A stretch of DNA of 64,000 nucleotides from Escherichia coli (GCF_003991155.1 NZ_CP031293.1), one strand, 5' to 3'; numbered from the stretch's first letter, positions 231 to 5,638 are shown. A program made the numbers and translations. The notes: a model not told the origin generated them from the letters alone.

Positions 231-1439
231 TCAGGCTGTCGCCTGAATCATTTCGGTGGGTTCCTGCTTCAACGGGCGGCCTGACTGCACCATCCCTCCA
301 CAGGCAAGAACGGCGTGCCCCGCCGCTAAAATGTTACGAGCGCCATTTACATCGGCGTTCGCTGTATATCCACATACCTGGCATCTGAATTGACTTTGTG
401 ACAGGCGATTTTCTTTCGCTGTATGACCACAGCACGTGCAACGCTGGCTTGTGTACGCTGGCGGAACAGCAAGCACCTGACCGCCACGCCAGAGCTGCTT
501 GTACTCAAGCTGGCGGCGCATTTCATACCAGCCCTGATCCAGTACCGAACGGTTTAAACCTGATTTTGCCCGGACATTGCGTCCCGGCTGGCTGACCGTA
601 CCCGCTGCTGACTTTGACATGTTGCTGACCTTCAAATCCTCAATGACTATCATTGCGTGGTTTTTGCTGACGGTCGTTGTGACTTTGTGAAGGTAGTCCC
701 TGCGGATATTTGCGATACGGGAATGCAGTCGCTGTATTTTGCGTTTCTGCTTCTGCCAGTTATTGCTGAATTCGACCTTGCGGCTTAACTGTCGCTGAAG
801 TCTCGCCAGCGTCTTCTGGTTTTTCTGAAAACTGTTTACAGGCTCAAAGACTGTGCCATCTGACAGCGTGGCGAGTTTAGCCACGCCAGCATCCAGCCCG
901 ACCATTGATGCTGAAGGGTGAACCGGAGTGGATACTTCACTTTCTGTCTGAATACTGATGTACCACTTACCGCAGGACTGGCTGACAGTGACATTTTTCA
1001 CAACACCCGTGACCTGACGGCTGTTCCGGTAGCGCATCCAGCCCAGTTTCGGCAGAAAAATACGGCTGTTTTCCTGATCGAGCTTAACGCCCTGCGGGTA
1101 GCGGAATGCATCATTCTGTCCCCGCTTTTTGAATCGGGGAAAAGCAGCCCGCTTCTGGAAGAAGTTTTTGTAAGCCCGCTCAAGGTCTTTCAGTGACTGT
1201 TGCAATGGCTGTGAGGGCGAATCTTTAAGCCATTGCGTTCCAGTGGCGTTTTTCCACTCAACCAGCCAGGAAGCCATTTTCCCGTAAGGGATGTATTTAT
1301 TACCGGCCTCATGATTCTCATTCTGAAGCGCCAGAGCACGATTGAAAACGAAACGACATGCGCCTGCGAAGCGCCTCATTTCATGCTCCTGTTGACCACC
1401 GGGTCTTAACTGGAATTTAAATGCCTGTAGTCGTTTCAC
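231..1439 (-). CDS. tnpB: TnpB (OrfB), IS605-family RuvC-like nuclease with C-terminal zinc finger; apparently intact, 402 aa
   Basis: Track ORF 231..1439. N-terminus [13 protein letters not shown] is typical of TnpB/OrfB; C-terminal CTCCGH...[18 protein letters not shown] is the zinc-finger/RuvC-III region. GTG start read at 1439. Confidence 0.85.
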
Positions 1440-1461
1440 AGGTCAAATTATATTTTGGTCT

Positions 1462-1973
1462 GTGAAAAAAGAAACCGATATCCGGCGTGGAAGGCATTGT
1501 GTTTTCCTGATGCATGTTCACCTGGTCTTTGTCCCAAATACCGACGCCAGATTTTTGACCATGACGCGACAGAAAAACTACGCACTTACTTTTCAAATGT
1601 ATGTGCTGATTTTGAAGCTGAACGGGTTGAAATGGATGGCGAACCAGATCACGTCCATTTGTTAATTAACTATCCTCCCAAACTGGCGATATCCAGTCTG
1701 GTAAACAGCCTCAAAGGTGTATCGGGTAGGTGACTGCGACGAGATCGACCAGATATTGCAGTCAGGTATTACTACAAAGGCGTTTTGTGGAGTCCTGGCT
1801 ATTTTGCCAGTAGCTGCGGAGGTGCGCCAATATCCGTCATCCGCCAATACATTGAACAACAGCAAACACCTGGTCAGGTGGAAAACCGCGCCTTATATCC
1901 CCGCCCTGAAGGACGGGGTTTTACGGCGCACCGGATAAAGAAACCGTCAAAATCACTCAGCAAAACAGGCTGA
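1462..1973 (+). pseudogene. tnpA: tnpA (IS200-like Y1 HuH transposase), disrupted by at least two frameshifts
   Basis: Transposase motifs are spread over three frames: HVHLVFVP (1462..1665), PKYRRQ...DHVHLLINYPPKLAISSLVNSLKG (1455..1733), WSPGYFASSCGGAPISVIRQYIEQQ (1785..1973). The first shift sits at the A-run in gtcccaaatacc. Confidence 0.8.
1899..1918. repeat. IS subterminal imperfect palindrome (left-end hairpin, tnpA side)
   Basis: ccccgccctgaaggacgggg, about 20 nt inside the inferred end. Confidence 0.6.
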
Positions 1974-2642: not shown

Positions 2643-3527
2643 ATGAAAAAAACATTACTGGCAGCCGGTGCGGTACTGGCGCTCTCTTCGTCTTTTACTG
2701 TCAACGCAGCTGAAAACGACAAACCGCAGTATCTTTCCGACTGGTGGCACCAGAGCGTTAACGTTGTCGGAAGCTATCACACCCGTTTCGGACCGCAGAT
2801 CCGCAACGATACCTACCTTGAGTACGAAGCATTCGCTAAAAAAGACTGGTTCGACTTCTATGGTTATGCGGATGCGCCGGTATTCTTCGGCGGTAACTCC
2901 GATGCAAAAGGTATCTGGAACCACGGTTCTCCGCTGTTTATGGAAATCGAACCGCGTTTCTCCATCGACAAACTGACCAATACTGACCTTAGCTTCGGTC
3001 CGTTCAAAGAGTGGTACTTCGCGAACAACTACATTTACGACATGGGTCGTAATAAAGATGGTCGCCAGAGCACCTGGTACATGGGTCTGGGTACCGACAT
3101 CGATACTGGTCTGCCGATGAGCCTGTCCATGAACGTCTATGCGAAATACCAGTGGCAGAACTATGGCGCAGCGAACGAAAACGAGTGGGACGGTTACCGT
3201 TTCAAAATTAAATACTTTGTGCCGATTACCGATCTGTGGGGCGGTCAGCTGAGCTACATCGGCTTCACCAACTTCGACTGGGGTTCCGATTTAGGGGATG
3301 ACAGCGGTAACGCAATCAACGGTATTAAGACCCGTACTAATAACTCTATCGCTTCCAGCCATATTCTGGCTCTGAACTACGATCATTGGCACTACTCTGT
3401 CGTAGCTCGTTACTGGCACGACGGTGGTCAGTGGAACGACGATGCAGAACTGAACTTCGGCAACGGCAACTTCAACGTTCGCTCTACCGGCTGGGGTGGT
3501 TACCTGGTAGTAGGTTACAACTTCTAA
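2643..3527 (+). CDS. tsx: Nucleoside-specific outer-membrane channel Tsx
   Basis: Track ORF 2595..3527 contains [38 protein letters not shown]...; ATG at 2643 gives the 294-aa precursor ending in GYNF. Confidence 0.95.
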
Positions 3528-3535
3528 TTGTGAGA

Positions 3536-3564
3536 ATGCCGGATTTCATATCCGGCATTTTTTA
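3536..3564 (+). terminator. Intrinsic terminator of tsx (hairpin plus T-run)
   Basis: atgccggatttcatatccggcat followed by tttttt, directly after the tsx stop. Confidence 0.75.
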
Positions 3565-3912
3565 TCACTTCTTCTTGTTCATCATCGCTTTCAGGTCAGC
3601 GAATGGGTTGTACTTCGCTTCACCGACATCTTTCTGCGCATCTTCCCCTGCGATAACGGTCGTACCATACTGATCCGCTTCGGTATATTTCGAATGCTCA
3701 TGATCGTGGCAATAGAGACAAAGCAATTCCCAGTTACTGCCATCTTCCGGGTTATTGGTATGGTCGTGATCAATGTGGTGAACGGTAAGTTCACGCAGGT
3801 TGGAATAAACAAACTCACGGGAACAGCGACCGCAGACCCACGGATAGATTTTTAATGCTTTTTCGCGATAGCCGCTTTCTAACCGCGCATAGTTTTTTGG
3901 GATGATAGCCAT
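3565..3912 (-). CDS. yajD: HNH-nuclease-family protein YajD
   Basis: 115-aa ORF MAIIPKNYARLESGYREKALKIYPWVCGRCSREF... with the HNH His/Cys pattern (HHIDHDH...CLYCHDHEH). Confidence 0.9.
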   Translation of the reverse strand: MAIIPKNYARLESGYREKALKIYPWVCGRCSREFVYSNLRELTVHHIDHDHTNNPEDGSNWELLCLYCHDHEHSKYTEADQYGTTVIAGEDAQKDVGEAKYNPFADLKAMMNKKK

Positions 3913-3999
3913 GAAAAGTTACCTGGATGAAATGTAGGGTTACGCGCAGTTTCCCAAGATGCGGGGATTTTCGCAATCCTGAGTCAAGAAATTCTCACA

Positions 4000-4281
4000 T
4001 TACCAGTGACGGCGAGGTTCCATCAGCTGATGAAGAATGCGCGCAATGAGAATGTCATCGACTCTTATAACGTAATAAACAGTGTGAAACCTAAATGCGA
4101 TCTTCTTTACCTCTGGAATCGCATCATAGTCTTGCCCTATCTCGGGCATTTGAGAGAGTGTATCCAGAAAAATGCCGAGAGAGTCGGTGTAGCGATCCGC
4201 CTGCTCCTCACCAAACTTTCCCAGCGTGTAGTCATAGATCCCTCTGAAATCTTCAACAGCTTTTCCGCTAAGCTTATACAC
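4000..4281 (-). CDS. parE: ParE/RelE-superfamily type II toxin (ParE-like)
   Basis: Track ORF 4000..4314; the likely start is the GTG at 4281 (VYKLSGKAVEDF...), overlapping the antitoxin stop by 8 nt. ParE-like pattern ...YKLS..A..D...IYDY......A.R.......L..MPE.G......P......R...Y.YY.IRVDD.I.IARILH. Confidence 0.75.
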   Translation of the reverse strand: MYKLSGKAVEDFRGIYDYTLGKFGEEQADRYTDSLGIFLDTLSQMPEIGQDYDAIPEVKKIAFRFHTVYYVIRVDDILIARILHQLMEPRRHW

Positions 4282-4516
4282 GATGTTTTTGCTTCCTTTC
4301 TGCTGCGATATCACGAAGCGTCATCGAACTTTCACCGCTCTCAAGACCTTCAATAACAGCATTTCTGACAGCTTCATCCCTGGATTCTTGTTGTTCCAAT
4401 AGACGAAGCGCTGAACGCATTACTTCACTGGCCGAGCCATAACGACCAGACTGGACCATCCGTGTAATAAAACTATCTAATTGTTCGCCAACGCTTACTG
4501 AGGTAATTTTGCGCAT
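4274..4516 (-). CDS. parD: ParD-family (RHH/CopG-like) type II antitoxin
   Basis: 80 aa, MRKITSVSVGEQLDSFITRMVQSGRYGSASEVMRSALRLLEQQE...; ATG at 4516 with a GGAGA ribosome-binding site 7 nt upstream; sits immediately upstream of, and overlapping, the toxin ORF. Confidence 0.8.
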   Translation of the reverse strand: MRKITSVSVGEQLDSFITRMVQSGRYGSASEVMRSALRLLEQQESRDEAVRNAVIEGLESGESSMTLRDIAAERKQKHRV

Positions 4517-4529
4517 AAGCGATCTCCAT

Positions 4530-4546
4530 GTATTAACTATTAATAC
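4530..4546. promoter_or_regulatory. Perfect palindrome upstream of parD (candidate autoregulatory operator)
   Basis: gtattaa-cta-ttaatac, about 15 bp upstream of the parD start codon. Confidence 0.4.
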
Positions 4547-4666
4547 AAAGTATATGTCAGAACTCTTTCTACAACCAAACCGTATTCAGTTGCATGTGAA
4601 ACAGGCAAAAAAAACCGCAGCGCAAATACGCCACGGTTTTTTTAACAGAACGGATTTAAAACACCC

Positions 4667-5638
4667 TTAAGGCAGAATTGACGGCTGATCCGCCCCTTCT
4701 TTTTCCACTTTCTGCTGCAGCATGTGTTCGCGCTTCATACCCAGTTTCAGAGCCAGCGCCGATGCTACGTAGATGGAAGATGCAGTACCGATGGAAACAC
4801 CGATAAGCATGGTCAGCGAGAAGCCTTCCAGTACCGGACCACCGAAGAGGTACAGCATCAGGATAACCATCAAGGTAGTACCGGATGTGATCAAGGTACG
4901 GTGCAGCGTCTGGGTCAAGGACACGTTAAAGATTTCGTAAGGCGTACCGCGACGGATCTTGCGGAAGTTTTCACGAATACGGTCCGATACCACGATACTG
5001 TCGTTAAGCGAGTAACCGATAACTGACATCAACGATGCCACAATGGTCAGGTCAATCTCGATATGGAATAACGACAAAATACCCAGCGTAATGATAACGT
5101 CGTGCGCCAGCGCAATAACAACCCCTGCCGCCAGTCGCCACTCAAAGCGGAAACCTACGTACACGAGGATAGACAGCAGCGCCGCCATCAACGCCATCGC
5201 ACCGGTTTGCGCAAGGTCTGCCCCCACGCTCGGCCCGACGAACTCAATACGCTTCACTGCCGCATTCTGATTGGTGGATTCGTTAATCACCTTCAAGACC
5301 TGGCTGCCCAGCACCTGACCGCCGGTTTCGCCTTCAGCAGGCGGCATACGGACCATGATGTCGTGGCTGCTACCAAAGTTTTGCAGCATCGGCTCTTCAA
5401 AACCGGCTTTTTGCAATGCATCACGCATTACGTCAATTTCAGCCGGTTTTTCGAGCGTAATTTCAATAACCGTACCACCGGTGAAATCCAGCCCCCAGTT
5501 AAAGCCGCGCACGCCCATAATAACGATAGCGGCGATTAACAGCAGACCAGAGATGCCGAAAGCCCAGTAGTCCCAGCGCATAAAGTCATAGACTTTACGG
5601 CCGTGGTTTAGTTGTTCAACAGTATATTCCTGTGCCAC
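4667..5638 (-). CDS. secF: Protein translocase subunit SecF
   Basis: Track ORF 4667..5683; the recognised SecF begins at [29 protein letters not shown] (GTG at 5638). Confidence 0.93.

Follow-up and report, generated by a model that had tools for sequence, protein, structure and literature searches.

The window analysed here, a stretch of 64,000 nucleotides of Escherichia coli DNA (GCF_003991155.1, NZ_CP031293.1), carries tgt, yajC, secD, secF, two small open reading frames (ORFs) and yajD in that order on its minus strand, and tsx on the plus strand. The yajD gene occupies 3565-3912(-) and secF ends at 4667(-), with the spacer between them at 3913-4666 (754 bp). The first-pass annotation had put this spacer at about 750 bp, with two ORFs co-oriented with secDF-yajD; the measured length agrees, all the features it described are there, and both genes do lie on the minus strand with their neighbours. 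From secF towards yajD, the locus holds the following features.

4605-4646, minus strand: secF intrinsic terminator of the strains that carry the cassette, a hairpin followed by U8
4549-4578, minus strand: candidate parDE promoter, weak, with TTGGTT (4578-4573), 18 nt and TATACT (4554-4549)
4529-4547: putative parDE operator, a perfect 8-3-8 dyad, TGTATTAA cta TTAATACA, 13-31 nt upstream of the parD ATG
4524-4527, minus strand: Shine-Dalgarno motif GGAG, read from the sequence, 7 nt before the parD ATG
4274-4516, minus strand: parD, 80 aa, ATG start, ribbon-helix-helix (RHH) ParD-family antitoxin (RefSeq WP_001226938.1)
4000-4281, minus strand: parE, 93 aa, GTG start, ParE-branch toxin of the RelE/ParE superfamily (RefSeq WP_000277485.1)
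3979-4666: variable segment of 688 bp, comprising parE, parD, the operator/promoter and the terminator, in place of 61 bp
3913-3978: shared part of the spacer, 66 bp upstream of yajD, identical in occupied and empty sites

The toxin ORF could extend at most over 4000-4314(-), and the in-frame GTG at 4281 gives a product of 93 aa and an 8-nt overlap with parD. RefSeq sets both genes at the same coordinates in strain 2016C-3878, whose sequence matches the window at 100% identity along the 1436 bp searched, and names the products 'type II toxin-antitoxin system ParD family antitoxin' (WP_001226938.1) and 'RelE/ParE family toxin' (WP_000277485.1). Of 13 loci compared, 11, among them the two E. coli alleles, combine a GTG start with an 8-nt overlap, and the remaining two start with ATG; the GTG at 4281 that had been chosen as the toxin start in the first-pass annotation is therefore well supported. 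[quoted passage not shown]

ParD matches the NCBIfam model TIGR02606 with 95.7 bits (curated cut-off 46.2) over profile positions 2-69 of 70, and Pfam PF03693 (ParD_antitoxin) with an E-value of 1.9e-22. Its best solved relative is ParD2 of Vibrio cholerae (7b22/7r5a; E 2.9e-19, residues 1-69), followed by ParD1 of Caulobacter and then ParD1 of Mycobacterium tuberculosis. Residues K3, T5 and S6 are identical to those of V. cholerae ParD2 (7b22) in the sequence alignment, and these are the residues of the VcParD2 ribbon that contact DNA (PMC10776004); the protein is thus predicted to have an N-terminal RHH domain with the conserved Lys/Thr/Ser ribbon. It is 70-84% identical to the ParD proteins of close homologues, several of which are on IncX5 and IncFII plasmids, and 54% identical to the IncT type.

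ParE matches Pfam PF05016 (ParE_toxin; E 5.2e-14), with residues 2-88 aligned to model positions 1-88 of 89. No curated NCBIfam model was matched by the toxin at an E-value of 0.01 or better, and neither ParD nor ParE was matched by the PADLOC defence models. A single-sequence search matched four solved ParE toxins (7ycs, 8c24, 3kxe and 7r5a), and a profile built from six family members and run against the PDB returned 7ycs, 3kxe (ParE1), 8c24 (ParE1) and 7r5a (VcParE2) with E-values of 1.5e-15 to 1.6e-9, the match to VcParE2 going from 5.3e-4 with the single sequence to 1.6e-9 with the family profile. The same profile found no RelE, YoeB, HigB or YafQ chain up to an E-value of 10; since the only significant matches are ParE toxins, this assigns the toxin to the ParE branch of the superfamily and not to that of the RNases. 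The alignment spans the alpha1-alpha2 hairpin, the structural hallmark of ParE toxins (bioRxiv 10.1101/2025.07.24.666505). By homology, ParE would be toxic and would have gyrase as its target. Across the six family members aligned, 48 of the 93 residues are invariant, including Phe23, which aligns with Trp25 of VcParE2. In VcParE2 the W25F substitution lowers toxicity without abolishing it and only Tyr fully substitutes, and some ParE toxins, such as PaParE1, are reported to be non-toxic (bioRxiv 10.1101/2025.07.24.666505). E. coli ParE is 56-63% identical to its homologues (45% for the IncT type) and E. coli ParD up to 84%; comparisons between other loci show a toxin at least as well conserved as the antitoxin, for example 72% for ParD and 79% for ParE between Xenorhabdus and IncFII. 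The divergence of the E. coli toxin could reflect faster evolution of the toxin, a swap of modules, or relatives that have not been sampled.

A 7-3-7 palindrome (gtattaactattaatac, 4530-4546) had been put forward in the first-pass annotation as the operator of an autoregulated operon. The palindrome is exact and extends to the 8-3-8 dyad at 4529-4547, with GTAT as the outer portion of both arms; the dyad occurs once in the 64-kb window, compared with an expectation of 0.00 from 100 shuffles, and 4530-4546 is invariant among the E. coli alleles compared. Of the 19 plasmid and chromosomal homologues examined, 17 have a matching dyad at a distance of 10-32 nt upstream of parD, preceded in the plasmid copies by canonical promoters, for example TTGACA-17-TATCAT. 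The form of the dyad varies with the N-terminal strand of ParD.

ParD strand MRKITS(V/I)S: dyad TGTATTAA-N3-TTAATACA, 7 loci, the window included
ParD strand (A/S/P)RTTSVT: dyad TGTGTT(A/G)A-N3-TTAACACA or a near variant, 10 loci

The ParD of IncX5, for example, begins MARTTSVT and has the corresponding dyad TGTGTTGA..TTAACACA, and that of the Salmonella plasmid starts MGKITTVS and its dyad differs. An A-to-G change in one arm is mirrored by a T-to-C change in the other and tracks the N-terminal strand of ParD, a covariation which comes from just two or three independent clades. The positional conservation and the mirrored changes are good comparative support, though not proof, for the dyad being the operator, and to this extent the idea of an autoregulatory palindrome is upheld. 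The GTATT and GTGTT half-sites, with their two ParD strands, would also offer a ready-made specificity swap for studying how RHH proteins read DNA.

The dyad directly follows the TATACT hexamer of the candidate promoter, which itself aligns with the TTGACA-17-TATCAT promoter of the plasmid homologues. A consensus promoter and terminator scan of 3850-4750 returned nothing at a threshold of 9 of 12, below which the candidate falls, so the parDE promoter at 4549-4578, read from the sequence, is put forward as a weak candidate. In strain TCM3e1, 12 of the 23 differences in the secF-yajD spacer fall within about 28 bp (4579-4606), between the secF terminator and the candidate -35 hexamer, with the coding sequences and the dyad conserved; in O157 this stretch holds another 8-3-8 palindrome, TTGCCTGT ttc ACAGGCAA.

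Occupied and empty sites were compared by alignment of the window with C41(DE3) and O157. The empty-site spacer of C41(DE3) is 127 bp long, in line with the figure of about 130 bp given for K-12 in the first-pass annotation, and a two-piece match of the same kind (about 810 bp) was obtained for S17-1 and other K-12 derivatives. The 61 bp particular to the empty site (K-12/B type) contain the secF terminator of those strains, with a predicted fold of -24.3 kcal/mol, and show no homology to the cassette (local alignment score 11, compared with 10.8 +/- 1.5 in shuffles). As these 61 bp have no counterpart in the occupied site, the event was a replacement and not a clean insertion; the description of the module as inserted is correct in that extra DNA is present and incorrect in implying a simple insertion, 61 bp having given way to 688 bp. 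No direct repeats, target-site duplication or mobility genes were found flanking the cassette, whose GC content is 0.41-0.47 compared with 0.49-0.57 in the flanks. The cassette brings a secF terminator of its own at 4605-4646, which was also detected as an inverted repeat and was missed by the consensus scan; its RNA fold of -25.4 kcal/mol (z -5.4) was equalled by none of 200 shuffles. So strong a terminator between secF and parD sets the cassette apart from the secDF operon. The locus is a natural example of a TA cassette that replaces, rather than interrupts, the terminator-bearing spacer of an essential operon.

At the other end of the cassette, the scan found no terminator in the interval from the stop of parE (4000) to the start of yajD (3912), and the fold of 3913-4010 is no better than that of shuffled sequences (z -0.32), so that parDE transcripts may read into yajD. 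In K-12-type strains yajD directly follows the secF terminator, and in carriers it may be co-transcribed with parDE. The Rfam search gave nothing in the cassette and only sub-threshold matches at the tsx terminator, one of which, to SorX at 3500-3563, probably reflects the terminator hairpin. The tsx-yajD spacer is itself variable, being 37 bp long (3528-3564) in the window and in TCM3e1 and 176 bp long in C41(DE3) (L002, 1325-1500), O157:H7 and strain N3, the longer form having about 139 bp extra with REP-like palindromes (gccggatgcggcg..., aggcctgataagcgtagcgcatcaggc). Further along the window, at 58-2344, yajI (DUF3251) is split into N- and C-terminal fragments by an IS200/IS605-type element with an intact TnpB/InsQ of 402 aa (231-1439(-)) and a frameshifted tnpA remnant at about 1455-1900(+); RefSeq annotates the same arrangement in 2016C-3878, and it is also present in TCM3e1.

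Among 5426 complete E. coli genomes, 5424 of which match the flanking genes, the contiguous order yajD-parE-parD-secF was found in 424 (approximately 8%), including O157:H7 strains EDL933, TW14359 and FRIK944, which makes the module accessory and not universal. Searched for by itself, the cassette was present in 426 genomes, always on the chromosome, never elsewhere and in no plasmid location, and parDE, with its parE ORF, is intact in 424 of these 426 carriers. With significant matches to the ParD and ParE family profiles for the two proteins and a comparison of the spacer across strains that finds it empty in most genomes, the identification made from the sequence stands on both points. In strain E105 an IS3-family element lies between parD and parE (L008, 2680-3998), parE being apparently intact but cut off from the promoter and parD slightly shortened (231 nt).

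Beyond E. coli, a scan of one genome per species with the ParD motif back-translated into a DNA pattern recovered 14 homologous loci, in Enterobacter, Pantoea, Erwinia, Serratia, Yersinia, Pectobacterium, Xenorhabdus, Shimwellia and other genera. Neither secF nor yajD was found near any of these 14 loci within the flanks examined, and there is thus no sign that the site is used outside E. coli. A peptide-pattern scan for the toxin in 100,044 species-representative genomes gave 49 pattern matches, none of which was confirmed; the E. coli representative evidently does not carry the cassette, and no other species in that scan has a close ParE. A tblastn search found no match among 50,697 phage records. 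One of the two closest ParD proteins found (84% identical) is on p1 of Pseudomonas silvicola, a megaplasmid of 953 kb (L012/L024), which has the same TGTATTAA..TTAATACA dyad and where parE is broken across three reading frames beside an intact parD. The patchy spread in E. coli, the lower GC content and the loci in other species that lack secF and yajD are consistent with horizontal acquisition.

The four allele types compared share 96.7-100% nucleotide identity with the window and have the same junctions. Across the 517 coding bases of parD and parE, 7-8 sites differ from the window (about 1.5%), and in secF 16-18 of 972 bases differ in N3 and O157 (1.7-1.9%) and 4 in TCM3e1. Each comparison of parD gives 3-4 differences, all of them synonymous; one accession covers the protein in every strain compared. 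The parE gene of the window has four differences from that of N3 and TCM3e1, all silent, and four from that of O157, of which two change amino acids (E25D and I37T). Allele differences that are so largely silent point to purifying selection and long residence rather than decay.

With the family membership, gene architecture, distribution and operator conservation described above, we consider it highly probable that the locus is a parDE type II TA cassette that was acquired horizontally, has become fixed in the chromosome and works by the standard parDE mechanism. What we infer from these observations is the toxicity of ParE, its action on gyrase, the repression of the operon and a biological role in selfish persistence, local stabilisation or anti-addiction. 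In the mechanism that we propose, transcription from a weak promoter immediately after the secF terminator would give a bicistronic parD-parE message, in which the 8-nt overlap and the GTG toxin start would couple the translation of the two genes. ParD would form an RHH dimer whose N-terminal beta-strand reads TGTATTAA-N3-TTAATACA, and since this dyad would overlap the transcription start, the operon would repress itself. The C-terminal half of ParD would wrap around ParE and neutralise it; should the labile antitoxin not be replenished, ParE would be set free and would most likely poison DNA gyrase, like its solved relatives.

The explanation that comes closest to competing with this, although we consider it improbable, is that the locus is a domesticated or attenuated remnant, in which ParD has been kept as a regulator or as an anti-addiction antidote and ParE has mostly lost its toxicity. 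The lower identity of ParE than of ParD to their homologues, the weak -35 hexamer compared with the TTGACA of the plasmid copies, the circulation of close plasmid homologues in Enterobacteriaceae and the natural variants in which the toxin is uncoupled or decayed (the IS3-family element in E105 and the frameshifted parE of the Pseudomonas silvicola plasmid) could all be accommodated by such a history. The Phe at the position equivalent to Trp25 would fit it as well, but this residue is invariant across the six family members and so is a family trait and not a lesion of the chromosomal copy. The parE ORF has moreover stayed intact in nearly all carriers, and although two of its four differences from O157 alter the protein, all four from N3 and TCM3e1 are silent. 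A related proposal, which we also regard as unlikely if a shade less so, is that the module acts as an anti-addiction device: chromosomal ParD would neutralise the ParE of plasmids, its own ParE having diverged and perhaps being attenuated. If this were true, O157:H7-type carriers could lose parDE plasmids (IncX5, IncFII) without being killed. The cassette might in addition, given the lack of a terminator after parE, place the HNH nuclease gene yajD under ParD/ParE-controlled read-through transcription.

That the toxin might be a RelE-like, ribosome-dependent mRNA endonuclease and not a gyrase poison is suggested by the Pfam model PF05016 and the RefSeq product name, both of which span the whole RelE/ParE superfamily. 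However, the family profile separates the two branches, the partner is a ParD-type antitoxin (TIGR02606) nearest to V. cholerae ParD2, and the toxin alignment runs through the hairpin that is the hallmark of ParE (bioRxiv 10.1101/2025.07.24.666505), which leaves an endonuclease very improbable. Chance ORFs in a non-coding spacer variant without TA function, for which there is the small size of the ORFs and nothing else, are refuted by the profile matches to the two families, at HMM E-values between 1e-14 and 1e-27, with the synonymous-only variation of parD and a paired architecture conserved in many genera also against them, and their probability is negligible.

The locus, read as a chromosomal parDE cassette, is an ordinary accessory TA module that is already annotated, belongs to a well-understood family and occurs in the O157:H7 reference strains. 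A table published in 2009 lists a chromosomal ParE homologue for EDL933 (PMC2654758), an entry which may mean the prophage copies. No paper characterising this specific module was found in the literature searched. Both genes are already named in public annotation and the finding is thus already known, its significance being small beyond bookkeeping.

The founding member of the family is the ParDE system of RK2/RP4, which reportedly combines a gyrase-poisoning ParE with an autorepressing RHH ParD (Jiang et al. 2002 and Johnson et al. 1996, cited in PMC7167474). The E. coli module shares its family names and general logic with that system as a matter of established knowledge, and no RK2 protein was among the solved-structure matches listed. 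The closest relatives are the parDE modules of enterobacterial plasmids (IncX5 pKPC-bca9, IncFII pRHBSTW-00452_4, Serratia EBP3064_p1, Salmonella pRM11060-2 and IncT pT-OXA-181), which belong to the same subfamily with 74-78% identity for ParD and 56-63% for ParE (54% and 45% in IncT). In common with the E. coli module they have ParD proteins of 80 aa and a gene overlap of 8 nt; outside the IncT class the toxin starts with GTG, and a dyad is found at the same distance upstream of parD everywhere but on the Salmonella plasmid. They differ in being mostly plasmid-borne and beside parA/parG or repA with TTGACA promoters, whereas the E. coli copy is chromosomal only and has a weak -35, and their half-site is GTGTT instead of the GTATT found here, matching a different N-terminal strand of ParD. 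Since the closest relatives lie beside parA/parG or repA on plasmids, the module fits a plasmid stability module that is now a chromosomal resident.

ParD2-ParE2 of V. cholerae (PDB 7B22, 7R5A; PMC10776004) also has an 80-aa antitoxin, the antitoxin-then-toxin order and an operator of GTA(C/T)-type motifs next to the promoter. Its operator, however, consists of three GGTA boxes and binds a 6:2 complex, whereas the E. coli module has one perfect 8-3-8 dyad with GTAT outermost; Trp25 of its toxin corresponds to Phe23 of E. coli ParE, and it is located in the superintegron of chromosome II and not between core genes. O157:H7 strains also contain a ParE-family toxin in the three-component PaaR2-PaaA2-ParE2 system of prophage CP-933P (PMC7167474), which is prophage-borne and uses a PaaA antitoxin and a separate PaaR regulator, in contrast to the two components and RHH ParD found here outside a prophage. 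A three-component PaaR-PaaA-ParE system was ruled out for the present locus, its antitoxin being an RHH ParD and no third gene being present.

The position between secF and yajD had been called unusual in the first-pass annotation, a view that is not borne out, as chromosomal TA cassettes typically lie in intergenic spacers between core genes (PMC7167474) and a strong terminator here separates the cassette from secDF. Residence in a variable spacer of this kind is the norm, as for mazEF between relA and mazG, ccdO157 between folA and apaH, and parDE of Salmonella between relA and mazG (PMC7167474, PMC3184786). Like mazEF and ccdO157, the E. coli module is a small cassette in a variable spacer, present in some strains only and without recognisable mobility genes, although those two encode toxins of another family. 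ccdO157 has been reported to be decaying in many strains, whereas parDE of E. coli is intact in 424 of its 426 carriers.
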